Assembly: GCA_938045545.1 (NCBI GenBank)
Contig: CALIBN010000012.1
Location: forward strand, 78,368-142,367
Origin: an uncultured archaeon
Lineage (GTDB): Archaea; Thermoproteota; EX4484-205; JAAOZP01
Direction: 5' to 3'
DNA length: 64,000 bases
In this document: piece by piece, positions 31,633 through 46,189 of the stretch
Layout of the letters: the number at the start of each line of letters is the position of its first letter
Numbering within the stretch: position 1 is the first letter of the stretch
The notes under the pieces: generated by a model
Database searches by the model: none
Seen by the model: only the letters and a program-made list of their open reading frames with translations
What the model was told of the DNA's origin: nothing
Translations under genes and position numbers: made by a program

Positions 31633-31950
31633 TTGAAGAGGAAGACGGAACAGTTGGATAAAATACTCGAGATGCTCGCTAGGAAAAGGCTTGAAGAGGC
31701 TGAGAAGCAGCTGGATGCTTTTAAGCCCAGCGGAGGATACGAGGCTGGCTACCTTAGAGGCTTAAGAGGCATTCTTCAAACGCTTAGGAGGCCTGTTGAA
31801 GGAAGCATTATGGGAGAGCCTGCAGAGGAATTGGAGAAGCATGTGAAAAGCCTCATGGAAACGGTTGAAACACATTACTTAAGTCAGGAGGAGGAGGGGT
31901 TTTTCGCAGCCTGGGTTGACTTTCTTGGGAAACTATCCGGAGGGGAATAG
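31633..31950 (+). CDS. Hypothetical helical protein
   Basis: GYLRGLRG..EEGFFAAWVDF; TATA-like cttatta upstream. Confidence 0.65.
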   Translation: MKRKTEQLDKILEMLARKRLEEAEKQLDAFKPSGGYEAGYLRGLRGILQTLRRPVEGSIMGEPAEELEKHVKSLMETVETHYLSQEEEGFFAAWVDFLGKLSGGE

Positions 31951-32223
31951 AATGTTATACACTAGGAACCATGTGAAGAGCCAGGCTAGGAAGAAGCTTC
32001 CCACGCCTTCTTTCCAAGTTGCGCTCTCATCCTTAAGCCTACCCCTATATATTCTTTTGAAAAAATAGTAGGTTAAAAAGTATGCCAGAACCATGTTTAG
32101 GAAGGCGCTTATTATCGTGGAAGGGGGACGCCAGAAGAAGGCGTGTAAAACACCCAGAATGGCTCCTAGAGCAACCCTCGTCCAGTAAATGAGGCTTTCA
32201 GGTTTAAATCTGTACTCGCCCAT
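31933..32223 (-). CDS. EMC6/Rab5ip-like small membrane protein
   Basis: Three TM helices; C-terminal EGVGSFFLAWLFTWFLVYN resembles the EMC6 family. Confidence 0.6.
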   Translation of the reverse strand: MGEYRFKPESLIYWTRVALGAILGVLHAFFWRPPSTIISAFLNMVLAYFLTYYFFKRIYRGRLKDESATWKEGVGSFFLAWLFTWFLVYNILFPSG

Positions 32224-32243
32224 TCATCTTGAGCTTGAAAGCA

Positions 32244-32260
32244 CCGAAAATAAGTCTTTC
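32244..32260 (+). repeat. attL core CCGAAAATAAGTCTTTC
   Basis: Identical to 43090-43106. Confidence 0.93.
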
Positions 32261-32478
32261 TAAGAAGAATGGAGAAATCTCCCCGGCAACCCTCTTTTTT
32301 TCTCAACACCTCAGTCTAATTTCAAAAGAAGACCTCTAAGTCTTAGGTCTCTGAACACACTAATCAAGCACTCTTACAACAATGTTCGGGAAGGTAGGAA
32401 GGGCGACAGGAAAGGCTTCGAAAAATTGGCACATGTTGAAGTTTAAAGTGTTTTAACGATCTTCATGCCTAACAATTT

Positions 32479-34161
32479 CTATGTCTTCCTAAAGAACTTC
32501 CAAGGTTTCCATTTTCGGGGAGGTCCTTCCCATTCAACCATTTTCTTCCTCTTATTTGGCTTCTGCGACCTTTCTTTCCATTCGATATCTTTCTTCTCCT
32601 CATTCAGCTTTTGCGATTTCTTTAAGCACTCATATACGAGTGCCTGCTCAGTTGGTGCATACACATCGCAGCTTTGACAGTAAAATGGAATTTGATCCTC
32701 CTTCGTAGCTGGAACAGGTTTTTCCTTCACTTTACCTTCTCTTCTACTTCCTATTTCAAAGGTTTCGAATTCTCCTACTTTGACTTCTCCGCGTGCCAAG
32801 GGGACTTCTCCATAACCCTCAAGGTCTTTCTTTATCTCACTGGACCCTACGGGACTTTTTCCAATTTCAACTCGCTCCGCAACATTTTCATGCCTAGAGG
32901 CCTCTGTGAAATCGATAAGAACAGCATAAGGTTCGCTCCGTAGTTTGAGGCTGTCCTCAGCTGCTTTCTCATCCGGTTTCCTAAGCACCCTTCCACGGAT
33001 CTGGATGTAGCTCAGGGGGGACCTAACTGGTCTGGCAATTATCAATACCTCTAGGTTCTTATCGTCAAAACCCATTTTAGCCATGTCCACAGTAACGAGA
33101 ATTCCCTCTTTCTTTTTTCTAAATTCTGAAAGAACCTCCTCCGCTTCGTCAATATTATAGTGTGCTACAGAGACTAGGTTATTCCTGTGACAAAGATCTC
33201 TAATCTTGCTATCCAATTCCTTCTTTATCAAATCAGCCTCTCCCGTATTGGCTGCAACGACTAGGGTTTTAGGGATCCTCCTCTTAAGCGATTCTTCCCC
33301 AACCTCTTTCTTAAGGACTTCGATTATTTTCTCCGCATATTTCTCTGCCCTTTCATATATTGCGACCTGCCATTCATCTAATCTCCAAACCGGTTCTGAA
33401 AAACGATCTTTCTCTTCCAAGCGAATGCTATCTTTAACGACTTTTGTTATCGTCCGATATATCTTCAAACGCTCCATAAGGATGCCCATATCCATGGCCT
33501 TTCTAGTTGAGCAAGAATAGACGGGCTCTCCGAGGGCCTCCTTTGCCTCTTTAGTTGGCGTCGCGGACAATCCTAAGATGAATCTAATGTTCGCGATTTC
33601 TTGAAGAGTCTCGATTACTTTTCTGATTTCAGGACCCCAGTATGTGTGATGGACTTCGTCAAGAATTGCTGCGTATACTTCAGTGATCATGTCCTTAAAT
33701 TCAGAACCCTTCTCTGAGAATTGCCGGTTGAGTAGTTGTGGGGTAGTTGGAATCACCACGCTTATTATTCCTTCGTCTTTCAAAAGATATTGCAGATGTT
33801 TACCCTTAGTCTCCCACAACTCATTTGAGATAGGAGTATAAATCTGCATCTGTAAATCTTTTAGCTTTTTTAATAAAAGATCTCCCTCCTCTTTTGCTTG
33901 ATCTAGAAGTATTTCTAGTGGAGCCAGCCAGAGCACTTTATCACCTTTCCTCAAATCCTCTCTAAGGAAAAGGTAGAGGAGAAAAGTGAATGCGAGCCTA
34001 GTCTTTCCCGTGCCGGTGGGCATGGCGATAATTCCAGATAGTTTATCGTGTTCCTTCTTAAGCAATTCATCCAACCGCTTGAGAGCCTCTTTCTGAATGT
34101 CGTTTAATTCATGGCCAGTTATCTCCTTCACCAGCTCGTTAAGCTGCTCTGGAGACACCAC
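32479..34161 (-). CDS. SF2 DExH helicase, ResIII/HsdR motor-like, no evident nuclease domain
   Basis: MPTGTGKT, LDEVHH, SATP, GFDDK, YIQIRGRVLR; start re-called at GTG near 34161 below gaaaac-ttattt promoter. Confidence 0.85.
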   Translation of the reverse strand: MVSPEQLNELVKEITGHELNDIQKEALKRLDELLKKEHDKLSGIIAMPTGTGKTRLAFTFLLYLFLREDLRKGDKVLWLAPLEILLDQAKEEGDLLLKKLKDLQMQIYTPISNELWETKGKHLQYLLKDEGIISVVIPTTPQLLNRQFSEKGSEFKDMITEVYAAILDEVHHTYWGPEIRKVIETLQEIANIRFILGLSATPTKEAKEALGEPVYSCSTRKAMDMGILMERLKIYRTITKVVKDSIRLEEKDRFSEPVWRLDEWQVAIYERAEKYAEKIIEVLKKEVGEESLKRRIPKTLVVAANTGEADLIKKELDSKIRDLCHRNNLVSVAHYNIDEAEEVLSEFRKKKEGILVTVDMAKMGFDDKNLEVLIIARPVRSPLSYIQIRGRVLRKPDEKAAEDSLKLRSEPYAVLIDFTEASRHENVAERVEIGKSPVGSSEIKKDLEGYGEVPLARGEVKVGEFETFEIGSRREGKVKEKPVPATKEDQIPFYCQSCDVYAPTEQALVYECLKKSQKLNEEKKDIEWKERSQKPNKRKKMVEWEGPPRKWKPWKFFRKT

Positions 34162-34300
34162 ATTAGCCAAGACTCTGTCATACTGACTGGTGTTTCTCCA
34201 AAATAAGTTTTCCTTAAGGCCAGAGAAACGAGGGAAATAAACCCTTAGAGCATGATTTCCAAGATTTATAAGTAGTTGGAATATAGGAAGAGACAGCACT

Positions 34301-37300
34301 ATGCTTAGGGGAGTAATAAGAGAGGCTAAGGTTGAAGAGGAGCTTTTCAGGATATTTAAAAACGTTCTAGAGAAGAAAAATCGTGAAATAGAGGGTGTAT
34401 TTTTTCATGATTTGGAACCCCAATATCCGGTTGACTCAGGAGAGGCGGATCTGGTTCTTTTCACGGATAGGCCGAGGAAACCAATTCTTGTCATAGAGTG
34501 TAAGAGGAAGGATTTGAAGACCAGGAGGGAAATAAGAAGCATAGACCCAATGAGTCCAAAGGTCATCGATCAAGCTCTATTCTATGCCACGAAAATAGGT
34601 GCACCACTGTTTTCAACGACTAATGGAAGGGTTTTCACACTGTTCATTAAGCCTAAACCCGATGAGCCGTTCAGCATTGAAAGACATAGGCTTCTAATAA
34701 AAGAGATAGAGTTGAGGGAGGAAAGCATAGAAGAAATCCTAGGTCTTGTAGCGAAATGGAAAGCAGGAGTCCCGGTCACTAGGACTGCAATAGACTGGAC
34801 GTTCATAATTAGGCTGAGGAGCTTTGTAGAATGGCTTTCCGAACAGCTCCTTCCAGCCATAGAAAAAAAGGCTAAGCAGAAGGGCGAATTCGCGGCTAAA
34901 CTGAAGGAGCATGAGGATAAATTGGGAAAAATAAGCTCTGAAATATTTGCAAGAGAAGCCGCCTACTTACTGATGAACAAGATAGTTTTCTATAAGATTC
35001 TTGAAAGACATTATCCGCTGGAGGAGCTTAAGGGCATAGTTGCGTCAAATTCGGAAAGCTATATGAATGCACTTAAAGAATACTTCAATAAGGCTATAGA
35101 AGTAACTGATGACTTTGAACCGATATTCTCAACAGGCGTTTACGATTATGTTCCAATGCCGGATGAGGAATGGGTTCTTGAGGAGATAAACGCGTTCATC
35201 GAAGATATGGGAAAATACAGGCTTGAAGAAATCGGAAGCGATGTTGTCGGCTTCATCTATGAGAATCTAATTCCTCCGGCGGAAAGACATAGCTTAGGAC
35301 AATTCTACACTCCTCCTCCAATAGCGGAGCTCATAGTTAAATGGGCAGTAAGAAGCCCTGAGGACAAGATTTTAGATCCAGCTGTTGGAAGCGGAACTTT
35401 CCTGATTAAAGCCTATCAAAGGTTGAAGGAGCTTAAGAAAGAACCTTCTCACGAAGAAATTTTAAAGCAGATTTACGCCCTGGACATTAATCCTTTCCCA
35501 GCCCACTTGACTGCGATGAATCTTGCGATGAGAGATGTGAAACATCCCGTGAGTGAGATGAATATTTTGGTTCGAGACTTCTTTCAACTGATGTATGGTC
35601 AGAAGTACTTTGTTGCTTATTCGGTGAAAACTCCAAGAGGAGAAAGAGAGAGAAAAATATCAATACCTTTATTTGATGCTATAGTGGCGAATCCCCCCTA
35701 TACTAGATGGACCGAAATCCCTGAGAAAACAAGAATGCTCATTGGAGAAACAATAGGAGAAACTCTAAAGAAATATAACTTGACAGCTAGGGTGAGACAG
35801 GGAATAGAACCTGGAATCTATATGCACTTCATAATGTGGGGATTAAACTTTCTGAGAGAGGGAGGTAGACTTGGAATGATAATCTCTGATAGCTGGCTCC
35901 AAACAGATTACGGGGTTGACTTCGGAAAATTCTTACTGGATAATTTTAAGGTTAAGGCTTTGATTGACATTTCTTCAAGGGTCTTTCCCGTCCCGCTGAT
36001 AGGCACATGTATAATACTTCTAGAAAAATGCAGCAGAAAAGAGGAAAGGGAGGAAAACAAAGCTGTTTTCATGTATCTGAACATAGAGAAAGAAGGAAGC
36101 CTCCAGGTTGAGGAAATTCTAGACGCTATTGAAAGACCTGAGCATTATGAAGAAAAATACATGGTGAAAGTTGTTAAGCAGAGCGAAATAAGCAGAGACC
36201 AAAAATGGATAAACATAATATTCGACACCGAAGGCATCCTAGAAAAGCTTGGAGAAAAAACTACTTCCATGAAAGAATACTTTGAACTAAGTAGAGGAAA
36301 CAGCCTATGGTCAATATGGTCCATGAAACATGGAAGGAGACCTGATGTTGGTGCAAAAGACTTCTTTTATCTTAACGAGGGCAAAGTTAAACAATGGGGT
36401 TTAGAGGATTATGCCTATCCCGCTTTAACGAGCTCAAGGTATGCGGCAAACTTCACATTCACTAAAAAAGATTGGGAAGAGCTTAGAGAAAGAGGGGCAG
36501 ATTGCTACTTATTCATTTGTCATAAGAAGAGGAATGAGTTACCAAGTAATGCTAGGGATTACATAAAGTGGGGAGAAACAGAGTGCAGAACTCAAATTAG
36601 AGGAACTAGGGGAGGAGGAAAGATCTGCAGTGAAGCACTTGCCTGTCAAGAAAGGGAAAAACTAGCAAGACGGCCTAAAGGTGAAAGGCTCTTCTACGGA
36701 TGGTATGACCTTGGAGGGGTAGAAAAAGCATCAATAATGGCAGTACGTCAATCAAGATATAAAACAAGGTTCATTTTATGTCAATACCCAATTGTTACTT
36801 ATGATGCGATAATAACCTTTATTCCAAAGGTAAGGCTTTCAGAATCACAACTTAAAGCTTTGTTAGCCTACTTGAACTCAAGCGTTGTTCAACTGTATAT
36901 AGAGTCTACGGGAAGGACAACAGGTGCAGTAGGTCCCATAGGATTAGAAGTGAAACATGCCCAAGAGATTCCGGTCATAGATGTTAATTCTTTAGATAAA
37001 AAGGACCTTGAAAGGCTTTCAAACCTGTTTGAGAAGCTAGAAAAAAAGGCTAGAGAGCTCGGAGGGGCAGACAAGCAGGAGAATGTAGAAAACCTCTGGG
37101 ATAGCGTAGTAGCAGAAATAGATGAAGAAGTCGCGAGGATACTGCAGTTTCCGAAGAGATTAGCAAGGGATTCGAGAGTTTTAGCCAAGGCGATGATGGG
37201 GAGGAGGCTCTCGAGGACAGTAGAAGTCGCACCGGAGGCAATAGGCGGTGAAGAGATAAAGAGAATGAGGATTCCTAGGAAAAGCGGGAAAACTGCGGAA

Positions 37301-37336
37301 AATAAAGAACTTTCGTCTCTCAAAGAATGGTTTTAG
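34301..37336 (+). CDS. Type IIG-like restriction-modification fusion: HsdR_N nuclease, N6-adenine MTase and TRD
   Basis: EADLVL..VIECK..QALFYA; GQFYTP, LDPAVGSGTFL, NPPY; AYLNS in TRD. Confidence 0.9.
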   Translation: MLRGVIREAKVEEELFRIFKNVLEKKNREIEGVFFHDLEPQYPVDSGEADLVLFTDRPRKPILVIECKRKDLKTRREIRSIDPMSPKVIDQALFYATKIGAPLFSTTNGRVFTLFIKPKPDEPFSIERHRLLIKEIELREESIEEILGLVAKWKAGVPVTRTAIDWTFIIRLRSFVEWLSEQLLPAIEKKAKQKGEFAAKLKEHEDKLGKISSEIFAREAAYLLMNKIVFYKILERHYPLEELKGIVASNSESYMNALKEYFNKAIEVTDDFEPIFSTGVYDYVPMPDEEWVLEEINAFIEDMGKYRLEEIGSDVVGFIYENLIPPAERHSLGQFYTPPPIAELIVKWAVRSPEDKILDPAVGSGTFLIKAYQRLKELKKEPSHEEILKQIYALDINPFPAHLTAMNLAMRDVKHPVSEMNILVRDFFQLMYGQKYFVAYSVKTPRGERERKISIPLFDAIVANPPYTRWTEIPEKTRMLIGETIGETLKKYNLTARVRQGIEPGIYMHFIMWGLNFLREGGRLGMIISDSWLQTDYGVDFGKFLLDNFKVKALIDISSRVFPVPLIGTCIILLEKCSRKEEREENKAVFMYLNIEKEGSLQVEEILDAIERPEHYEEKYMVKVVKQSEISRDQKWINIIFDTEGILEKLGEKTTSMKEYFELSRGNSLWSIWSMKHGRRPDVGAKDFFYLNEGKVKQWGLEDYAYPALTSSRYAANFTFTKKDWEELRERGADCYLFICHKKRNELPSNARDYIKWGETECRTQIRGTRGGGKICSEALACQEREKLARRPKGERLFYGWYDLGGVEKASIMAVRQSRYKTRFILCQYPIVTYDAIITFIPKVRLSESQLKALLAYLNSSVVQLYIESTGRTTGAVGPIGLEVKHAQEIPVIDVNSLDKKDLERLSNLFEKLEKKARELGGADKQENVENLWDSVVAEIDEEVARILQFPKRLARDSRVLAKAMMGRRLSRTVEVAPEAIGGEEIKRMRIPRKSGKTAENKELSSLKEWF

Positions 37337-37348
37337 CACATGCTAAAA
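37331..37348. terminator. 8 bp inverted repeat over the RM gene stop
   Basis: ttttagca-ca-tgctaaaa. Confidence 0.4.
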
Positions 37349-37682
37349 AGCAGGAGTTAATTATAATGGCCTGAACCATCCCCTGCTAATGATGCATATA
37401 TACCGTTGGCATTCCATGATTGACCCATAAAGTCCAGTCTGACTGCTGATGTCCTTAGAGTAATCAAATGAAAGAAGGAAAGGAGGAACCGGAGAGACCT
37501 AGAGGGGGAAATGGTCCTGACCCAAAAAGCTTTAGCCGGGATGTGCTTGGCCTTAGGGGATTCTAGATGGCCCATGAGAATAGGCATGCATAGTAAGCCT
37601 GTATGAGGGGCCTTCCATGGCTAACTATTGGCTTTGTGGGAAGCCCACCGTTATAGCATGCTCATTCCTTCTTCACGTTCTC

Positions 37683-37740
37683 GAAACGTCGAAAACGATG
37701 GAGAACGAGACTAAAACGTTGCAGAACGATGAAAACGTTA
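37683..37740 (+). repeat. Six RAACG units with about 10 bp periodicity
   Basis: AACG at 37685, 37694, 37704, 37715, 37725, 37734. Confidence 0.75.
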
Positions 37741-37775
37741 AAAATACTTAGCGTCTCTCTGTTGGAGAAGTGTCG

Positions 37776-38483
37776 ATGAAACACCAAATAGTCCAATTCG
37801 TCCAGGAGTTCCATAAGCAAAATGGCAGGGCTCCGAGCGTCAATGAGATTCTTAAACACTTTAAGAATAATGGGTTATGCTCCTCCACCTTTTACCAATT
37901 TTTCCCAAAAGGCTTAAAAGAACTTTGTAGCCTCGCCGGTATTCCAGTTCCGGTTGAACGCATTCGAAAAACAGCGAAAGCCACAGCAGCCCTCAGAGAG
38001 GGTAGAAAGGGGGATGTGCATCGAGAAACAGCCTTGAGCCGCCTAATTCTGACGGAGGAGCAGACAAAGAGGCTCCTCGGCCTAAGCCACTTGGAGGGAG
38101 GAAGGGACCCGCTTCTGATAATGGACCAGTTGCTGGATTTGGACACTGTGTTGAGGAAAGAGTTTAAACTTACACTTGAGGATATCGCTCGCGTAGCTGT
38201 TTTCCTAAAGTACGCTGTGTCCATCGGCTGGAGGATCAAGCAGGATCCAGACCTGCTCGATTGCCTGACGAGAGCCTGGAATCTAGGGCTGCTTGGGCTC
38301 GAGCCCAGGGCCGTGCAGTACCTCGTCGAAGTCCTAGAGGATGCTCAGGCAAGGGGATGGAAGCCGAATGAGTTCGCTAATTATGTTACCAAGTTCTATA
38401 ATGGAATTCTGGCTTACATCATGTACGAGAAGGGTTTAATATGCTTCGAAGAATTCAGGAGGAGGGTCGAAACTCATGTCTAA
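37776..38483 (+). CDS. Element protein with N-terminal HTH-like domain
   Basis: FHKQNGRAPSVNEI..SSTFYQFFPKGLKELCSLAGI. Confidence 0.7.
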   Translation: MKHQIVQFVQEFHKQNGRAPSVNEILKHFKNNGLCSSTFYQFFPKGLKELCSLAGIPVPVERIRKTAKATAALREGRKGDVHRETALSRLILTEEQTKRLLGLSHLEGGRDPLLIMDQLLDLDTVLRKEFKLTLEDIARVAVFLKYAVSIGWRIKQDPDLLDCLTRAWNLGLLGLEPRAVQYLVEVLEDAQARGWKPNEFANYVTKFYNGILAYIMYEKGLICFEEFRRRVETHV

Positions 38484-39126
38484 GCCTGACGGCCTAGCTG
38501 AGTTCCTACTCAAAAGAGCTGAGCAGGTTGAGGCAGAGAGGAGGGCTGAGGCTGAAAGACAAGCAGCGATAATGGCACATAAGATATGGCTTCACCACCA
38601 GGCTGCAAACAGGGCTAGGAAGGAGCTTGAGGAATACCGGAAGCTCCTTAACGATTCCAGGGGCCTCATATCCTCACGAGATATCAAGGCCAATGAGATT
38701 CTCATAGAAGAGCTCCAGGGCAGGCTAATGTCCGATCCGGAGGGGGCTGAGGAGGAAGCGAGGATCTATCGAAAGTTCCTGGAGGCTAACGTCAAGAGAA
38801 TCAGGAGGGCTGGGGAGAATAAGAGGGGGAGGGCACTCGAACGTAAAAGTGATGAGGCGATGCTCCATTCTCTCAGGTACGTAGCGGGGCTGAACGAACT
38901 ATCGAAGAGCATTGATGAGCTATGTAACAAATGGCTTTCAATAAGCAGGGACAATTCTCAGGCGGGGAGGCTTTATGTCCTGTTGCTCAGACATATGGGG
39001 TTCAACGTCAACAGCCTTTCAGAAGCGAGGAGTGTCTTAAAGAAAGAGCTAAGGGAAGCGTTTGAGAAGAGGCTTACGGAGAAGATAAAAGCCTTCCATG
39101 AGTCCGGAGGTTTTAGCACCTGCTAA
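38476..39126 (+). CDS. Coiled-coil hypothetical protein of the element
   Basis: Overlaps previous stop; GGAGG SD; helical charged composition. Confidence 0.7.
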   Translation: MSKPDGLAEFLLKRAEQVEAERRAEAERQAAIMAHKIWLHHQAANRARKELEEYRKLLNDSRGLISSRDIKANEILIEELQGRLMSDPEGAEEEARIYRKFLEANVKRIRRAGENKRGRALERKSDEAMLHSLRYVAGLNELSKSIDELCNKWLSISRDNSQAGRLYVLLLRHMGFNVNSLSEARSVLKKELREAFEKRLTEKIKAFHESGGFSTC

Positions 39127-39501
39127 ATCTGAGAAGACATTTATCAGGTTGAGTTGCTCTAGCTAAAGTTCTCCTAAGCCGAGAAGAAGGGTTATTTTCC
39201 AGGTTAGAATGCCTTTTCCCTTAGGCCTGTTCTTCCATGTTAAAATCCATATCTTGCTCGATTTTTCGCATGAATCATGAAATGACTTTTGCAGTTAAAA
39301 CATGTCATATGTTTTTCTATATAAATTTTTCTGTTGATAAGATTAAATATTTATCTTTAGAGTTAATCAAAGTTAACTTTAAAAATTTAGTGTATACACT
39401 AAATTTAGAAGAAACCAAATAGTTAGCTTTAAATATCGGTGATAAAAAAGTACGACTAATATGAAAAAACTTAAAAGTACGCTTACATGCAAAGTATCAT
39501 A

Positions 39502-39726
39502 ATGAGTAAAGTGAAGGTAGTTAAGGTTTCAAGTAACGGTACAACAAGCCTAGTTTACATTCCGAAGAAATTTGCGAAAGAATTGGAAATTAAAAAAGGT
39601 AATTACATCAAGATGATTTTAGCAGGTGGGCAAATCATTATTCAGCCACTCGACCTCGGCTATGAATGCGGGCCCGGTCGAGTGGGCAGGCCCTCCAGCA
39701 GGAGTGAACCTGCAAATGAAGGATGA
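39502..39726 (+). CDS. AbrB/MazE-type DNA-binding protein
   Basis: SLVYIPKKFAKELEIKKGNYI..QIIIQP; start re-called at ATG 39502, about 30 bp below aaaaac-ttaaaa. Confidence 0.85.
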   Translation: MSKVKVVKVSSNGTTSLVYIPKKFAKELEIKKGNYIKMILAGGQIIIQPLDLGYECGPGRVGRPSSRSEPANEG

Positions 39727-41710
39727 GGAGGATGTACTACTTAAACATTTCTCCAGCAATGTTAAGAAGGCCCAAGAGTTCGTGGTGAGAGAAATAGAAA
39801 AGGAAGAAAGCAAAGAAAACAAGAAGACGATTAAAACTATCTTTGAAGATCTGAACGATTTCATCGTCCAAGAGATTTGGAGCAATGGGCCAAAGCTTCT
39901 AATCTGGGATAAGAGGGATGGGAAGGTTAATGTTTGTGAAGAATTCGAATGGGGAAATATCGTTTACAAGCCTCATAACATACCGATCGGGAGGAAAGGC
40001 AGACCACTTGTTACTTTGGCGTCAAAACCCATACCTTATAGAAACGAGAAAGACCTGCTTGAAAGGATCAGAGAGTTCATTGATCGCTATTCGGATTTAG
40101 AGCCATGGGCTTTAGAATTTACATCGAGGTTCGTCATGCATAGCTGGGTTTATGACATGGGAGATTATGCAATCCAATTATGGATAAAGGGGCTCACGGG
40201 CTCAGGTAAAACGAGGTTTCTTAAGCTTCTCGCCCTGCTCTGCTATAATGCCCTTTATGTCGGTGGTAATGCAAGTTTCTCGGCCTATAAAAGGCTAATC
40301 TCGAAATATAGGGGCACGTTGTTGATCAACGAGTTCGAGCTAAAGGATGAAGATGACTCCAACGAGGTCATAATTTGGCTCAACAATGGATTCGAAAAGG
40401 ATAATGAATTTCCATTAAGCAGAAAAAACCAACCTGAGAAACAAGATTTTTTCGACCCTTTTGGTCCTAAGGTGATAGCATCCAGAAGCCTGATCTCAAA
40501 CCCCGCCACTCTTTCGAGGATGGTCGTTATTGAGATGCATAAGACATCGAGAAAAGACATTCCTATCAAATTGCCTGCTGAAGCCTATCGTGAAGCTGAA
40601 GAGATTAGAAACATGCTCCTATTCTTCAGGCTTAAACACTACAAGAGTGATTATGCGTTACGCTCTGATCTCGATGAGAGGCTTAGAAACGATGAGGTTA
40701 TCGATGGACGCTTTAAGCAACAGGCTTACCCCATGCTCGAGCTCTATGAGATAGCAGGTCTAGATGTCAACGAGGTTTTCAACTTCTATAGGAAGCTCAC
40801 CCTGGACTTTAAGAAGAGGCAGGCGGAGTCAACGCCTGAAGGCGTGATCTTCCATGCGATCATGGAGTTATGCAGCCTCCAAGATTGTAACAACCCCGAT
40901 TTCTCAGGCCACATCGTTAAGGAGGAGGTAAAGGATGAAACCGGCCAGGAGAAAAAGGTCTATGGATTGGTGGGCATAACAACCAGGCTTTTGGAAGACA
41001 AAACTGGCTTCTCGAAGTATACCATAACAAAGGCCTTAAGCCACATAGGGATGGTTCAAGAGAGGAGGAAGACGAAGGTTATAATCTATGACCTCAGAGG
41101 AGATTTTACCGAACGAACTAGATATTTAAGACTCTGGAAGTTTAAGAGTGAAAGAACTTGGAAGGAGGCCCTCGACCAATACTATGTGGGGGATGTGTCC
41201 CTAGCGAGTGGCACCACCGACACCTTTGACACCTTGCCCATTCCGGAGATTCTAAAAAGTAGGGACTTTAACTCTGAAAAGATGCCAGAAAATGTCCTTT
41301 TAAATAGCACAAACAATGTGGAAAATGCCAATAAAAAGTCATCTTTCTTCGAGAGCCCTGACCTGGAGAAAGATGTCCAGGTGGCGAAGGTGCCAGAGGT
41401 GCCACTTGATGGAGACACATATGTTCCCGAGCAGGAGGGCAAGGCTGAACTCCAGAGTTTAAGTCCCTCTTTTGAGAATCTAATTATCAGGTCTGGAAGC
41501 TACATCCGAAAATCTCTTAAAGATTTCTCCAAGTACCATTACGCTGAGCTGGTTTGTCAGATTTGTAACTCTATCGACGAAGTCTTCGCCAGAAAAGTTA
41601 GCGATACCCAAATAGCTTACCTGTGCGATGAGTGTGTGAAGAAGGCCTCTGACCTGAGGATCAGCCTCGAGGAACTTCTCGAAAAGAGTCAAAGAGGCGA
41701 AGCGGCCTAA
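39716..41710 (+). CDS. P-loop NTPase, putative replication helicase/Rep, with C-terminal zinc finger
   Basis: Walker A GLTGSGKT, Walker B LLINE, FGPKVIA..ATLSR; CQIC..CDEC; GGAGTGA SD before ATG 39716. Confidence 0.75.
   Translation: MKDEEDVLLKHFSSNVKKAQEFVVREIEKEESKENKKTIKTIFEDLNDFIVQEIWSNGPKLLIWDKRDGKVNVCEEFEWGNIVYKPHNIPIGRKGRPLVTLASKPIPYRNEKDLLERIREFIDRYSDLEPWALEFTSRFVMHSWVYDMGDYAIQLWIKGLTGSGKTRFLKLLALLCYNALYVGGNASFSAYKRLISKYRGTLLINEFELKDEDDSNEVIIWLNNGFEKDNEFPLSRKNQPEKQDFFDPFGPKVIASRSLISNPATLSRMVVIEMHKTSRKDIPIKLPAEAYREAEEIRNMLLFFRLKHYKSDYALRSDLDERLRNDEVIDGRFKQQAYPMLELYEIAGLDVNEVFNFYRKLTLDFKKRQAESTPEGVIFHAIMELCSLQDCNNPDFSGHIVKEEVKDETGQEKKVYGLVGITTRLLEDKTGFSKYTITKALSHIGMVQERRKTKVIIYDLRGDFTERTRYLRLWKFKSERTWKEALDQYYVGDVSLASGTTDTFDTLPIPEILKSRDFNSEKMPENVLLNSTNNVENANKKSSFFESPDLEKDVQVAKVPEVPLDGDTYVPEQEGKAELQSLSPSFENLIIRSGSYIRKSLKDFSKYHYAELVCQICNSIDEVFARKVSDTQIAYLCDECVKKASDLRISLEELLEKSQRGEAA
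41193..41420. repeat. Inverted 9 bp iteron arrays around an AT-rich spacer (putative intragenic origin)
   Basis: agtggcacc accgacacc tttgacacc (41207-41233) vs ggtggcgaa ggtgccaga ggtgccact (41380-41406), plus symmetric atgtgtc/gacacat. Confidence 0.75.
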
Positions 41711-41713
41711 GCC

Positions 41714-43063
41714 TTGATCTTAAGCTGTCCCTATTGCGGTTCTTCGAAACTATTTAAAGCAGGTTTTAGAAAAACGAAGAGTGGCGAGAAGATCCAACGC
41801 TACTTATGTAGAAGCTGCTTTCGAAGGTTTGGCCTTCCTGGAAACCCTGAGGTAAAGCTCAACGTCTCCAGGGGGCTCGTCGAAGACTCTAAAGTTGTAA
41901 AGCAGCCTCCTGATGCTCCCTCTGTCGTAGGGCCTGCCCTCGAGCCAAGCCCTGAGGACTCTACGCTCCCTCTCGCTAAAGATCCTGGTGTGCATAGTAC
42001 ACGAATCTCGAGACAAGGGTTTTATAGTTTGCGTCTCGAAGCTAAGGACAGCAGGAGGGCAGGGAGTGAAAAGCATCCTCCTGCAGAAGGTGAAATGGAT
42101 AACATGAGCAACCCTGAAGGGGTTGTGAAGAGCATCCTGGTCCAGCGACCGGGGGCTGGGCAGGATGACAAGAAAGAGGAGCTCGAGGGCAAGCTCATAA
42201 GCTTCGCATGGTGGCTTAAGAAACAGGGACTGCGTGAGTCCACGGTAAAGCAGTATTGCAAAATACTCCGCCAGCTTGTTAAGAGCAGTGTCAACTTAGA
42301 TGATCCTGAAGCGGTAAAGGAGGCTTTAGCAAGGAATGGTAGAAGCGAAAGGTGGAAGGCTCTGATAGTGCATGCCTACTCCGCATACTTAAAGATGAAG
42401 GGAAAGCACTGGGATCCCCCACGGTTCGATGTGGTTAGAAAGATTCCCTTCATACCCTTGGAGAGCGAGATCGATGCACTGATAGCCGGTTGCGGACCTA
42501 AGACTGCAGCACTGCTCCAATTGCTTAAGGAAACCGGCATGAGGATAGGCGAGGCGTTGAGGCTGACCTGGAAGGATGTGGACCTCGAGAGAAGAGTCAT
42601 AATCTTTAACGAGCCGGAGAAAAACAGCAATCCGAGAATCTTTAAAATCAGCCCCAGGCTTATCAGCATGTTGAGCATGCTTCCGAGAAACGGAGTGAGG
42701 GTGTTTCCAACGAGCTATCACAGCGTTAAAAACAACTTTAAGCATTCTCGGAGACGCTTGGCGGAGAGACTTAATAATCCCAGACTTCTAAACATTAGTT
42801 TCCACACCTTCAGGCACTGGAAGGCCACCATGGAGTACCACAAAACAAAGGATTTGTTGCATGTCAAGGAGCTGCTCGGACATAAGAATGTAGACAACAC
42901 GATGGTTTACATTCAGATCGAAAGGGCTCTTTTCAACGAGACGGATGCCGAGTTCACAGTTAGGATCGCTAAGACTCCTGACGAGATTAAAGAGCTTCTG
43001 GAAGCTGGTTTTGAGTATGTTTGCGAGAAGGATGGCTTCCTCTTCTTCAGGAGGAGGAAATGA
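41714..43063 (+). CDS. int: Tyrosine recombinase/integrase with N-terminal zinc ribbon
   Basis: CPYCGS..QRYLCRSC; catalytic ETGMR, HTFRH, LLGH, TMVY. Confidence 0.93.
   Translation: MILSCPYCGSSKLFKAGFRKTKSGEKIQRYLCRSCFRRFGLPGNPEVKLNVSRGLVEDSKVVKQPPDAPSVVGPALEPSPEDSTLPLAKDPGVHSTRISRQGFYSLRLEAKDSRRAGSEKHPPAEGEMDNMSNPEGVVKSILVQRPGAGQDDKKEELEGKLISFAWWLKKQGLRESTVKQYCKILRQLVKSSVNLDDPEAVKEALARNGRSERWKALIVHAYSAYLKMKGKHWDPPRFDVVRKIPFIPLESEIDALIAGCGPKTAALLQLLKETGMRIGEALRLTWKDVDLERRVIIFNEPEKNSNPRIFKISPRLISMLSMLPRNGVRVFPTSYHSVKNNFKHSRRRLAERLNNPRLLNISFHTFRHWKATMEYHKTKDLLHVKELLGHKNVDNTMVYIQIERALFNETDAEFTVRIAKTPDEIKELLEAGFEYVCEKDGFLFFRRRK
41804..41995 (-). CDS. Small basic protein nested antisense inside the integrase ORF (candidate regulator/excisionase)
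   Basis: MHTRIFSERERRVLRAWLEG..; own BRE/TATA gcaaac-tataaaa 25-31 bp upstream; sense frame here is a Pro-rich linker. Confidence 0.65.
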   Translation of the reverse strand: MHTRIFSERERRVLRAWLEGRPYDRGSIRRLLYNFRVFDEPPGDVELYLRVSRKAKPSKAAST

Positions 43064-44976
43064 GAATGTCCGGAAATAGTCTAAAAACTCCGAAAATAAG
43101 TCTTTCCAGCATCGACTACCGGGTGCTCTCCAAGGAGCTTTCTAAAGAGCTGCAGGGAGCATGGGTTGACAACGTGTACAAACATCCTGATTACGGATAC
43201 TATCTGATGGTTTTCAGAAGCAGCGGGATTGTCAAGAAGCTAGTCATAATACCTGGGGAATCATTGTTTCTAACTCGCCGAGATTATCCTGTCCCGAGTA
43301 CTCCCGAGGGCAGCGTATTGCAGCTGAGGAGAATAGTCTGCAACCTTAGGGTTGAGAGCGTGGAGCAGCATGACTTTGACAGGATTATAATCATGAGTCT
43401 TTCCAGAGGAGGGTTTAAAACCAGGCTTATCGTGGAGGGATTGAAACGAGGCGTGATCGCCCTTGTATCTGAAGACTGGCGTATCCTCTTCACTTCTCAA
43501 AGAATCGAGATGGTAGCCAGATCGCTCAGAGAGGGGGAGAAATACGTTTTCCCACCGTCAAACATTTTCGACCCCATGTGCATCCCGGGAAGCCTGGAAG
43601 CCCTGCAGAAGTATTCCTCGGAAAAGCTTGGCAGGCTGATAGCTGGTAGGCTTGGCTTCGGGTCTAAAACAATGAGTGAGATATGCAGAAGGATAGGGCT
43701 TGATCCTGACTCAAGCGTTGAAGGAAAGATCCCTATCGTAATCGAGACCATACGTATGCTCATCAAGGAGGCTGAAGAGTCTCCGAAGCCGCGGATCTAC
43801 TATCGCGAGGGACGACCGGTCGATGTGTCTGCGATAAGGCTTCTCTCCTTGGAGAACATGGAGCAGAAGGAGGTTGAAACCGTTTCAGAGGCTTTGGATG
43901 AATACTATGCTACACTCGGGTTTGAGGCTGCTGGTGATGAAAAATCATCATTAGAGCTGAGTAGGCTGGTTAGAATAAGAGAGAACCTTGCTTCCGAAGT
44001 AGAGGCGTTGAGGAATAAGGCTAGGATGATCATGGAGAACCTTGCGGTCTTTCAGGCAGTTTTAGACGCTGTAAGGAATAAAGTGGAAGCGCCAGCTGGT
44101 TTCAAGATTCTTGAAACCGACTACGGGAGGAGAACTGTTAAAGTATTGTTCAACGATTCAGAGTTGAAGCTTAGCTTGGATTCCTCGGCGGCGTCAAACG
44201 CCTCCAGCATGTTTGAGGAGGCTAAGAAAATCGAGAAGCATCTTTCCGAGATTGATGGCAAGATTCTTCTGCTTAAGGAGAAGGCTTCTGCCGAAAGCAG
44301 GAGAATGGTTCCTGGGAAGAGGGTTGAAAGAAAATGGTTTGAAAAGTTCCGATGGAACGTATCGGTTAACGGAAACTTGATTCTGGCCGGTAGAGACGCT
44401 GGGACGAACGAGCTTCTCGTCAAGAAGTATGTTTCAGATAGAAGCGTGGTGTTTCACGCGGACTTCATAGGAGCACCGTTCGTAACCATACATAATGTTG
44501 AAAACCCTTCAGAGGAGGAGCTTGAGGAGGCTGCGCTCATGGCGGCATGCTACACTGCAAGAGCTTGGGAGAACAAGTATGCTTCCCTAGACGTCTACTG
44601 GGTCAGGGGAAGCCAAGTCGGCAAGCAGGCCCCCCCAGGCCAGTACCTACCCAAGGGAGCGTTCATGATAAGGGGGGAGAAGAACTTCATTAGAAATGTT
44701 GAGCTTAAGCTTTGGATCGGAGTTTCAGATAATGGCGAAGTGGCTTACGGGAGTCTAAGCAAGGTAAAGGCAAGGTGTAGAAAGTATGCAGTAATCCTTC
44801 CTGGAGACAAGGATAAGAATCATGAAGCTGCTTTACTCGCAAGGAAGTTTCTTAAAGACATGTCTCTTCCCCGTGAAGCATTGCCAGAGCTGCTTGAGAG
44901 GATTCGAAGCATTATTCCAGGGCGACACTGTGAAGCTCGCTACATGCCGCCCATTCCTCCGGGGCAAGGGAAATAG
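43060..44976 (+). CDS. rqcH: Ribosome quality-control protein RqcH/NFACT (NEMF-like)
   Basis: FDRII, KWFEKFRW, GRDAGTNELLVKKY, FHAD..GAP, YLPKGAFMIRGEKN; start ATG 43060 or 43066 supplied by the element. Confidence 0.9.
   Translation: MRMSGNSLKTPKISLSSIDYRVLSKELSKELQGAWVDNVYKHPDYGYYLMVFRSSGIVKKLVIIPGESLFLTRRDYPVPSTPEGSVLQLRRIVCNLRVESVEQHDFDRIIIMSLSRGGFKTRLIVEGLKRGVIALVSEDWRILFTSQRIEMVARSLREGEKYVFPPSNIFDPMCIPGSLEALQKYSSEKLGRLIAGRLGFGSKTMSEICRRIGLDPDSSVEGKIPIVIETIRMLIKEAEESPKPRIYYREGRPVDVSAIRLLSLENMEQKEVETVSEALDEYYATLGFEAAGDEKSSLELSRLVRIRENLASEVEALRNKARMIMENLAVFQAVLDAVRNKVEAPAGFKILETDYGRRTVKVLFNDSELKLSLDSSAASNASSMFEEAKKIEKHLSEIDGKILLLKEKASAESRRMVPGKRVERKWFEKFRWNVSVNGNLILAGRDAGTNELLVKKYVSDRSVVFHADFIGAPFVTIHNVENPSEEELEEAALMAACYTARAWENKYASLDVYWVRGSQVGKQAPPGQYLPKGAFMIRGEKNFIRNVELKLWIGVSDNGEVAYGSLSKVKARCRKYAVILPGDKDKNHEAALLARKFLKDMSLPREALPELLERIRSIIPGRHCEARYMPPIPPGQGK
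43090..43106 (+). repeat. attR core CCGAAAATAAGTCTTTC
   Basis: Identical to 32244-32260; 26 bp after integrase stop. Confidence 0.93.
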
Positions 44977-45043
44977 AGATCCTTACGTCTAGTCTAAAAG
45001 GATTAATGCTTAAAAAGGAGGACGCATTTAGGAAAAAGCCGGG

Positions 45044-46189
45044 TTGAAAATAGCTGCCAGAACAAGCAGGATTGTCGAGCCGCCTCACAGAAGGATTTTG
45101 AAGGAAGCCTTGTCTAGAAGGAGCGTTGTGATGAACCTTAGCGTGGGGGATATTTTCATAGAGCCCCACCCGTTAGTTAAGGATGCCGTTAGGAAAGCCT
45201 CTGAGGAAAGCAGCCTCACATACCCCCCGGTGGAAGGGTTCAGCGAGCTTAGAAGCCTGATAGCCGAATACTTGGTGGAGAGCAGGAGTTTAGACGTGAA
45301 GGCTGAGAACATTCTGGTGACAGCGGGGGCTTCGGAAGCGTTTCTCGTAGCATTAATGACTGTGCTTGACCCTGGGGAAAGGATTATTCTCCCAGATCCA
45401 ACTTACCCTCAGCACACTCTGGCGGCGAACCTTTTCGACAGCATTACGATAAACTATTACAGTCAGTATTCAGATGTTAGCAAACAGGTTACTGGAGGAA
45501 AAGACGGGCGCAGCCTCATACTGGTTTGCTCTCCAAACAACCCGACTGGGAGGATTATTTCAACAAAAGACATGGAGATGCTTGTCGAGCATGCTCGGGA
45601 AAACGGTTCTACGATTGTTTCCGACGAGACTTACTTAGAAATATTTTTCAGTGGAAACAAGCCCGTGAGCCCAGGAAGCTTCGACACCGGCCTTGAAAAC
45701 ACCATCATCATAGGAAGCTTCTCTAAGAACATGGGGATAACCGGCTTGAGAGTAGGTTTCATAGCTTCTGAAAAAAGCATGATCAGCAGGGCAAGCATGG
45801 TTAGGTACGCTACTTCGCTAACTTCAAACACGCTGGGGCAGCGCGTAGTTTTGAAAACGCTTCCCCTCATAAACGAGATATCCGAGTATGTAAGGATGAA
45901 CGTTGAGAAACGCCTAAGAATGTTCATACAGGGCTTTAAGAGAAGCGATTTGCTGAAGGTCTACGAGCCCCAGGGGTCGCTCTACATATTCCCATACGTG
46001 CCGTTCAAATCCTTCGAGTTCTGTCTCGAGCTGGCTAGGGAGACGGGGGTCGTAATGGCCCCGGGTCAAGGGTTTGGGCCGTCGGGTGAAAACCACGTTA
46101 GGATTAGCTTTGGAGCGAGAGAGGAAGACATAATAAATTCAATAGAGTTGTTAAACGGGTTTGAGCCTAAGGTTGAACGATGCTTTTAA
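45044..46189 (+). CDS. PLP-dependent aminotransferase class I/II
   Basis: SPNNPTG, SDETY, SFSK..TGLRVG, HVRISF. Confidence 0.9.
   Translation: MKIAARTSRIVEPPHRRILKEALSRRSVVMNLSVGDIFIEPHPLVKDAVRKASEESSLTYPPVEGFSELRSLIAEYLVESRSLDVKAENILVTAGASEAFLVALMTVLDPGERIILPDPTYPQHTLAANLFDSITINYYSQYSDVSKQVTGGKDGRSLILVCSPNNPTGRIISTKDMEMLVEHARENGSTIVSDETYLEIFFSGNKPVSPGSFDTGLENTIIIGSFSKNMGITGLRVGFIASEKSMISRASMVRYATSLTSNTLGQRVVLKTLPLINEISEYVRMNVEKRLRMFIQGFKRSDLLKVYEPQGSLYIFPYVPFKSFEFCLELARETGVVMAPGQGFGPSGENHVRISFGAREEDIINSIELLNGFEPKVERCF

Follow-up and report, generated by a model that had tools for sequence, protein, structure and literature searches.

A 10.8-kb integrative element in the first codons of rqcH in an uncultured archaeon and the gene start that it probably supplies

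RESULTS

The rqcH locus and the borders of the element

The window analyzed here is a stretch of 64,000 nucleotides (nt) from an uncultured archaeon (contig CALIBN010000012.1 of assembly GCA_938045545.1), and it belongs to contig C12 of a 51-contig genome (G000) that is 92% complete. It holds rqcH, a ribosome-rescue gene and the archaeal homologue of RqcH/NEMF, whose 5′ end is interrupted by a 10.8-kb element with a tyrosine integrase gene. The genes and attachment (att) site features at the two ends of the element are listed below, where SD stands for Shine–Dalgarno and aa for amino acids.

31933-32223, − strand: small membrane-protein gene, 96 aa, the divergent host neighbor of rqcH
32203-32208, + strand: TTTAAA, probable TATA box of native rqcH, within codons of the small gene
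32235-32339, + strand: most likely native rqcH start (TTG 32235), from which an orphan 34-codon frame (LKAPKISLSKKNGEIS...) extends into the element
32244-32260, + strand: attL core, 17 nt, codons 4-9 of native rqcH
32271-32301, + strand: P′ arm, a terminator-like hairpin GGAGAAATCTCC with a T7 run (32295-32301) after it
41714-43063, + strand: tyrosine integrase gene, 449 aa, intact (Pfam Phage_integrase)
43050-43057, + strand: SD-like motif GGAGGAGG, made of the last Arg codons of the integrase
43060-43089, + strand: P arm, read as the new rqcH N-terminus, with arm repeat TCCGGAAATAGTCT (43069-43082)
43090-43106, + strand: attR core, 17 nt, second copy of the exact repeat
43060-44976, + strand: rqcH, recombinant form

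The element is bordered by a 17-nt exact direct repeat, CCGAAAATAAGTCTTTC, with copies at 32244-32260 and 43090-43106 and no further copy in the window; two matches were obtained in 0 of 100 shuffles. The repeat widens leftwards to 23 nt at 91% identity (32238-32260 versus 43084-43106), and the spacing of the two copies, 10,846 nt, is the element size. GC content falls to 0.38-0.44 inside the element, compared with about 0.48-0.52 outside.

RqcH is present in 40 of 41 related genomes, and 15 rqcH loci of the same genus that include the gene start (L002-L016) were compared with the window; G001, where rqcH is split over two contigs, was left out. Fourteen of these loci are empty sites: the start of the small minus-strand membrane gene and that of rqcH are ∼11 nt apart, and nothing is inserted there. 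The contig of the fifteenth (L016) ends 25 nt upstream, with the same host-type arm as the others. The closest relative, G006 (RqcH 97% identical), differs by one letter from the left arm plus right arm of the window. Contigs from two other studies, run X3 (a hot-spring metagenome) and run X4 (a run of a named organism), are ∼97% identical in the flanks and skip exactly from 32243 to 43090, with 17 shared letters. Direct repeats thus lie at both ends, and the empty sites of relatives consist of host arm, core and host arm. These observations confirm that a 10.8-kb element with exactly known borders is integrated site-specifically in the first codons of rqcH, as an earlier note made from the letters of the window had claimed. 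That note had also pointed to element-free relatives as a check on the integration; the empty attB sites were found, and relatives examined for an rqcH start of the type MSGNSLKT, or for loss of the adjacency of the small gene and rqcH, leave the integration standing.

In run X1, which is possibly the source sample and hence no independent data, contigs end at 32260 and begin at 43090. Contig word depth there, a weak measure that gives no share of cells, is 34.6 and 37.1 in the flanks versus 9.5-12.1 in the element. Because of these breaks at the cores and the depth gap, the X1 data hint that the element is carried by part of the population only, with occupied and empty sites coexisting. The Logan contigs of X1 also hold both junctions: record 2 runs from 32231 into the element and record 7 spans 42987-43119. 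Among contigs, the one trace of an attP circle is a single weak joint in X1 that goes back from 42843 to 32271 (depth 5.3, 33 letters on the shorter side). This joint could be attP of the window element, attP of a related element or a repeat artefact.

The native start and promoter of rqcH

The product of the recombinant gene scores 452.3 bits against the NCBIfam model RqcH_arch (NF041120; cut-off 400) and matches Pfam NFACT_N and NFACT-R_1, as expected for archaeal RqcH, and position 1 of the RqcH model aligns to its residue 16. The earlier note had read the host start as TTG AGC TTG AAA GCA CCG from 32229, and these letters are correct. Of the two TTG codons, the first (32229 in the window) is kept in only 7 of 14 congener loci, whereas the second (32235, five codons before ATA) is kept in all 14, with a shifted register in L009 and L015. 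TTTAAA starts exactly 32 nt before the second TTG in 14/14 congeners, including the two in which the length of the N-terminus differs. Across the genome, TATA-like hexamers peak at −37 to −29 before the first start codon of 1,315 long open reading frames (ORFs), with 362 hexamers in these 9 positions versus about 66 expected from background. This is the spacing predicted for leaderless or short-leader archaeal genes. Because the second TTG is conserved in every congener at a fixed distance from TTTAAA, native RqcH most likely starts at TTG 32235, with the sequence M-K-A-P-K-I-S-L-S-S. For the G000 genome as a whole, the TATA-like and SD-like peaks suggest many leaderless genes together with an SD-led subset.

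The small gene on the other side of the site has a probable TATA box of its own, TTATTTT, on the minus strand at −30 to −24 of its ATG. Because this motif sits inside the att core, the small gene probably keeps its promoter at attL. The core is thus probably used twice, as coding sequence for the RqcH N-terminus and as the TATA/B-recognition element (BRE) of the divergent small gene, a dual function that would explain why it is conserved across the genus. The match of the small gene to Pfam EMC6 (PF07019) spans the whole profile at E 1.1 and 10.2 bits, below the gathering threshold of 23.3, so the label 'EMC6-like' given to it earlier is not confirmed. Downstream of rqcH, TTAAAA stands 34 nt before the TTG of an aminotransferase gene (45010-45046), which probably has its own promoter.

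Start and expression signals at attR

In the integrated state, ATG 43060-43062 overlaps the integrase stop codon (TGA 43061-43063), and a second in-frame ATG follows at 43066. The earlier reading of this junction, MRMSGNSLKTPKISLSS, is correct, and its description of a supplied start that overlaps the integrase stop behind an SD-like motif is borne out, except that the ATG lies at 43060 and not at 43061. The SD-like motif GGAGGAGG is located 3-10 nt before ATG 43060 and 9-16 nt before ATG 43066. Throughout the genome, SD-like motifs are ∼fourfold enriched with motif starts at −16 to −9 before the first ATG of long ORFs (93 and 56 per 4-nt bin versus about 20), a spacing that would fit 43066 best and 43060 acceptably.

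Integrated rqcH has been parted from its native TATA-like box, which is now 10.8 kb off, and the orphan frame that starts from the native promoter runs into the P′ hairpin and its T7 run. The 330 nt before the new ATG are free of TATA-like hexamers, and there is no T-run of six or more on the + strand between 40448 and 45100, from the gene of a putative replication (rep-like) protein upstream of the integrase through the end of rqcH. The recombinant gene is likely to be translated from a rep–integrase transcript, which would give RqcH 5-7 additional N-terminal residues and K-T-P-K in place of K-A-P-K. Since the RqcH model starts at residue 16 and N-terminal length varies within the genus, the exchanged stretch is probably a variable, lineage-specific extension whose replacement is tolerated. 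Promoters, co-transcription, translational coupling and continued RqcH function are what we infer here; the in-frame ATGs and the SD-like motif mean that a replacement gene end is supplied, which differs from a disruptive insertion with 'regulated gene integrity'. A scan for bacterial sigma-70 promoters and terminators stayed at shuffle level and is irrelevant to an archaeon.

The integrase and its attachment-site arms

The integrase matches Pfam PF00589 (Phage_integrase) with E 3.9e-19 and 69.5 bits (cut-off 27.1). Aligned to archaeal XerA (4a8e), its best solved relative (E 1.8e-13), it shows the segments GMRIGE, HTFRH, LLGH and MVY, and the catalytic R, HxxR, H and Y of a tyrosine recombinase are all present. 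The NCBIfam model XerA_Arch gives 90.5 bits, under its 220-bit cut-off. An N-terminal Zn ribbon and a long linker precede the rest of the protein, and the C-terminus reads FRRRK* where the family has a conserved FRKRK*. Among full-length family members, only the window integrase ends in FRRRK with the letters AGGAGGAGG; L145 and L178 have RRRK encoded by other codons. In the family, att lies within about 20-75 nt of the integrase stop. The window gene is whole (449 aa) and the core begins 26 nt past its stop, so it is not of the SSV type, in which the integrase gene is split.

Within the P arm, TCCGGAAATAGTCT is a degenerate copy of TCCGAAAATAAGTCT (43089-43103), and the two are 20 nt apart. 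Such an arm repeat (at least 10 of 12 matches) is found in 64 of 138 distinct downstream regions of the family, compared with 46 of 690 shuffles, and the spacing is 19-21 nt in 56 of the 64 regions that have it. The left end of the core is also the second repeat copy in three places: the window, G041 and G007. Because the 20-nt-spaced pair is family-wide, we take the P arm to be a candidate integrase-binding repeat, and its translation is best read as incidental.

On the other side, the P′ hairpin GGAGA[A/T][A/T]TCTCC with its T-run, 8-11 nt past the attL core, recurs in G000:C23 (32745), G042:C5 (near 67050) and G007:C12 (about 224,600), and in partial form in G041. Its copies in the whole genome are two attL sites and one unrelated place. 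Together, hairpin and T-run may act as a terminator, either shielding the element from host read-through or ending 3′-targeted host genes.

Targets of the integrase family

The integrase family is widespread in metagenome-assembled genomes (MAGs) of Bathyarchaeia and Brockarchaeota, as judged from record titles. Further copies are found in G000 itself (contigs C23, C11, C13 and C46); several full, partial or decayed copies per genome are also seen in G002 (8 matches) and G042 (12 matches). Related integrases were examined at 80 genome loci and at 82 loci from metagenomes and viral sequences, and none of them had RqcH in its flanks; of the 158 loci whose integrase C-terminus is complete, 15 offered <130 nt of downstream sequence.

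The nearest integrases, which are 60-64% identical, use a gar1-like 3′ end and an intergenic site. A 17-nt repeat brackets the element of the C23 integrase (60%) and falls in the 3′ end of an 88-aa gene, which was read by eye as Gar1-like; the closest integrase, in G007 (64%), has its site some 20 nt beyond a convergent gene. Use or scarring of the gar1-like 3′ site is seen in G000, G006, G016 and possibly G008. An integrase fossil followed by TGA-A-ATG in G016:C21 was considered as a second supplied gene start and rejected, being a decayed attR at the gar1-like 3′ site.

Elsewhere in the family, the integrase stop is about 30 nt from the 3′ end of a facing archaeal RNase P RNA gene in L048 (G000:C13; RNA gene at 2404-2709) and L164 (4225-4528), and a subclade of the integrases appears to target this gene. 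In L078 (5394-6323), a large-subunit (LSU) rRNA gene starts about 220 nt after a family integrase in the same orientation. One 41%-identical integrase, L124, is on a contig titled as a Tenericutes bacterium MAG, probably a mis-binned archaeal contig.

Target classes were scored by script for 157 loci; the tRNA counts (aragorn) are lower bounds, and several loci in the 'other' class show uncalled tRNA-like 3′ ends. The classes are:

tRNA 3′ end facing the integrase: at least 48 loci
co-oriented tRNA 5′ end: at least 8 loci
co-oriented long ORF starting at most 80 nt from the integrase stop: 13 loci
other: 73 loci
too short to class: 15 loci

The co-oriented tRNA genes, in 8-9 loci by these lower-bound counts, lie 27-73 nt past the integrase stop. 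In a FastTree tree of the last 300 integrase residues, which is rooted at the midpoint only, all 48 tRNA-3′ loci fall in one half, and the window falls in the other (73 rows, support 94) with the protein-5′ cases and most of the tRNA-5′ cases; 50 loci of the 'other' class also belong to the window's half.

Other insertions at the 5′ ends of protein genes

Two further loci resemble the window. In G041:C8, the ATG of a LarA-like gene (Pfam Lar_N) opens a 16-nt repeat, 26 nt past the integrase stop, whose second copy is 2,456 nt upstream. G095 provides the matching empty site, where a TATA-like TTTAATAA precedes the ATG, and the LarA-like insertion is thereby confirmed. In G042:C5, codons 6-10 of an isochorismatase-like gene contain one copy of a 13-nt repeat; the other copy is 17,352 nt upstream, with the P′ hairpin after it. 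Here too an ATG overlaps the stop codon of the integrase gene, and M-S-E-R-M-C-V takes the place of the host M-N-Y-A-V; the repeats are the evidence that suggests an insertion in this case. The P arm at this attR (L107) begins ATG ACA AAC TAT GAA GTG (MTNYEV) about 45 nt upstream of the core, and may be a captured or duplicated host 5′ end. A LarA-like target is also seen in L207 and L212, and an isochorismatase-like one in L135.

An SD-like motif precedes the start in all three protein-5′ cases: GGAGG in the window, GGTGA in G041 and GGGTG in G042. Insertion in the first codons of protein genes, with the gene then directly behind the integrase, is recurrent in this Bathyarchaeia/Brockarchaeota clade.

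Other genes of the element

The element also carries the following genes upstream of the integrase:

32479-34299, − strand: SF2 helicase (ResIII/DEAD/Helicase_C), cargo
34301-37336, + strand: 1011-aa N6-adenine methyltransferase/type IIG-like restriction–modification (RM) enzyme, cargo (Pfam N6_Mtase, Eco57I; PADLOC MTase_II, REase_MTase_IIG)
37770-39126, + strand: two ORFs, of 237 aa (weak DsrC/TusE-like N-terminus) and 216 aa
39626-41710, + strand: 694-aa protein with a GSGKT P-loop

Apart from the helicase and two small ORFs, every ORF between 34301 and 43063 is on the + strand, and TTAAAA is found 32 nt before the GTG at 37770. Neither the 694-aa protein nor the small ORFs have a match in PHROGs, Pfam, NCBIfam or PADLOC. 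In Atlas, the 694-aa protein falls in unnamed clusters of hypothetical archaeal and viral proteins, one of which carries DUF3631 on 11% of its members. A 51%-identical homologue (BLASTP) precedes the integrase of the C23 element, the second element in this genome. The 694-aa P-loop protein is likely to be the replication protein of the element. Because a homologous pair occurs in the C23 element, the rep-like and integrase genes together form what we regard as its conserved core, with the helicase and RM genes as cargo. No virion genes were recognized in the element, which we read as an integrative plasmid-like or cryptic element. Two copies of a near-palindrome, GGTTTTAGCAC[A/C]TGCTAAA, are present, one at the end of the RM gene (37329-37364) and one before the small ORFs (39109-39144); this repeat could be an operator or a terminator.

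DISCUSSION

The explanation that we consider probable is that a plasmid-like element has inserted at a 17-nt site in rqcH and supplies a start codon and SD motif of its own, as one use of a recurrent 5′ option and with no long specialization on rqcH. The 10,846-bp element has recombined at the site over codons 4-9 of rqcH in a Brockarchaeota-like host. The small gene would retain its promoter at attL, and rqcH is parted from TTTAAA, its probable leaderless-type promoter 32 nt upstream of TTG 32235. The compact attP arm that directly follows the integrase gene at attR supplies the SD-like GGAGGAGG and the ATGs at 43060 and 43066, so that RqcH would still be made, as the last cistron of the rep–integrase transcript and with 5-7 extra N-terminal residues. 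The arrangement would be the protein-gene counterpart of 5′-tRNA targeting and a recurrent option in this integrase clade. The partial likeness of the two gene starts outside the core would come from extended imperfect att homology (AAA.C.) and from the 20-nt-spaced arm repeat of the family.

Several points weigh against this explanation. The SD-like motif could be a by-product of the Arg/Lys-rich C-terminus of the integrase, and L108 and L156 end in AGGAGGTGA before a tRNA. A stop-free in-frame start in a 26-nt arm would arise by chance at a roughly estimated ∼0.3 per case. TATA-like hexamers occur within the integrase gene at 42641 and 42726 and could give a separate transcript. Some selection on the peptide may still lie behind the change between K-T-P-K and K-A-P-K. 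For G042 the search gave no empty site: five loci from 61 family genomes lack an isochorismatase start near the flank match. An exact search of viral_contigs for the P arm plus core gave 0 matches, and no attP circle was seen among contigs beyond the weak joint in X1.

The displaced TATA-like box and the absence of such a hexamer in the 330 nt before the new ATG would suit a disruptive or neutral insertion: rqcH would be silenced by promoter loss, the ATG and SD motif would be fortuitous, and an element newly arrived in a fraction of the population would be tolerated since RqcH is dispensable. RqcH is non-essential in bacteria. The Arg/Lys-rich integrase C-terminus is family-wide, with AGG and AAG codons to be expected there, and the word depth of the element in X1 is about a quarter to a third of that of the flanks, by what is a weak measure. 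We nevertheless regard silencing as unlikely, because all three protein-5′ cases keep an open frame and a start behind an SD-like motif, the combination of FRRRK with AGGAGGAGG is peculiar to the window among full-length family members, and no oligo-T run separates the rep-like gene from the end of rqcH. An attP that carries a replacement for the target gene end is, moreover, a general rule (PMC10111431, in its available part). An assembly or binning artefact, in which the element was wrongly joined into the rqcH locus, could be suspected from the 51-contig metagenome bin and from the GC content of 0.38-0.44 inside the element. It is extremely improbable, given that both junctions are present on Logan contigs of X1 (with the reservation made above about that run) and that the exact repeats, the conserved P′ motif and the relatives that skip precisely at the core borders are what site-specific integration predicts.

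The earlier note had proposed that the lineage of the element is long specialized on rqcH, that protein-level selection has kept a recoded SLK-x-PK in the supplied N-terminus, and that rqcH and the aminotransferase–trmI genes are under element control. The in-frame ATG, the SD-like motif and the ATGA overlap speak for this proposal. The element has K-T-P-K where the host has K-A-P-K, and other congeners have K-T-P-K or K-T-Q-K; by eye, 7 of the 12 letters to the left of the core are identical and the right side looks random; and the MTNYEV stretch in the G042 P arm resembles the host MNYAV with third-position differences. We nonetheless consider it quite unlikely. With the second TTG as the start conserved among congeners, the host S codon (AGC) falls ahead of it and is untranslated and the host L codon is the initiator TTG itself, so neither is a protein residue that could have been kept. 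The supposedly recoded S-L codons of the element (AGT CTA) lie in TCCGGAAATAGTCT, the degenerate core copy that belongs to the family-wide arm repeat, and the leftover likeness, AAA-n-C-n beside the core, is on the sequence an imperfect extension of att. The stretch falls before residue 16, where the RqcH model begins, in the variable extension. Specialization fares no better: the search for related integrases beside rqcH gave none among 162 loci, the nearest integrases use other targets, and all 15 congener sites are empty. Element control of the aminotransferase–trmI genes is needless, as the aminotransferase gene has its own TTAAAA box 34 nt before the start.

Integrative elements repair the gene end that they displace, and this is nearly always a 3′ end. 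The comparisons that follow hold for the available parts of the papers cited. Most archaeal att sites are in tRNA genes and a few in protein genes; among archaeal integrases only the pTN3-like ones use the 5′ half of a tRNA gene, and the integrase promoter then drives the recombinant tRNA (PMC8371274). In a thaumarchaeal survey, all 14 protein-gene integrations are 3′-distal, and one worked example has an element-supplied stop codon (PMC6563490). Bacterial genomic islands as a rule bring, in attP, a substitute for the end of the target gene, in contrast to 'regulated gene integrity' (PMC10111431).

The arrangement at rqcH shares features with each of these. As in the pTN3-like (TKV-type) integrations into tRNA 5′ halves in Thermococcales, the 5′ end of the target is swapped and the integrase gene sits immediately before it; expression of the recombinant gene from the integrase promoter, stated for the tRNA genes (PMC8371274), is predicted for rqcH. 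Members of the window family are likewise found before co-oriented tRNA genes. The rqcH arrangement differs in that the target is a protein gene, so that a start codon, a reading frame and a ribosome-binding site must be supplied, and, compared by architecture, in that the pTN3-like integrases are of the SSV type and split their own gene (PMC8371274), whereas the window integrase is intact with att 26 nt past its stop. Thaumarchaeal elements such as NitEve-E2 also have a short att (median 17 bp there, 17 nt here), were validated by empty sites and supply a gene end that keeps the frame open; there it is a 3′-distal end with a stop codon, and here a 5′ end with its start codon and promoter is replaced (PMC6563490). 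As in bacterial genomic islands, attP holds a surrogate for the displaced gene end and the target stays intact (PMC10111431). The non-suicidal pNOB8-like and XerA-like archaeal integrases share with the window an integrase gene that is intact after integration. Unlike them, the window integrase has an extra N-terminal Zn ribbon, a long linker and the conserved FRKRK-type C-terminus, and its family has a compact attP right 3′ of the gene, with the 20-nt arm repeat and the P′ hairpin plus T-run. By analogy, the case in the window would be 5′-tRNA targeting transferred to protein genes, the integrase being non-suicidal. Searches by word in open-access main text found no described archaeal element that replaces the start of a protein gene, and the available part of PMC8371274, on archaeal tyrosine recombinases, has no 5′ protein-gene case; our claim of novelty is confined to archaea and to the literature examined.

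There are thus two precisely mapped, empty-site-confirmed cases, at rqcH and at the LarA-like gene, and a third, at the isochorismatase-like gene, that is known from repeats only. All three exchange the start region of a protein gene together with its promoter, and leave the gene directly behind the integrase. We tentatively suggest, as a possibility that may well prove wrong, that an integrase clade with a compact attP 3′ of its gene captures 5′ ends (rqcH, larA-like, isochorismatase-like and tRNA-His/Ser/Pro), with SD-led, integrase-coupled translation replacing a leaderless promoter. Expression of rqcH in the lysogen would then depend on transcription of the rep–int operon, and such host–element coupling could stabilize the element or tune rqcH. 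The compact attP of about 100 bp and the defined attB sites are usable for recombination assays in uncultured lineages, and, if the element drives rqcH, the locus would offer a natural setting in which to study the rewiring of host gene expression by archaeal elements.

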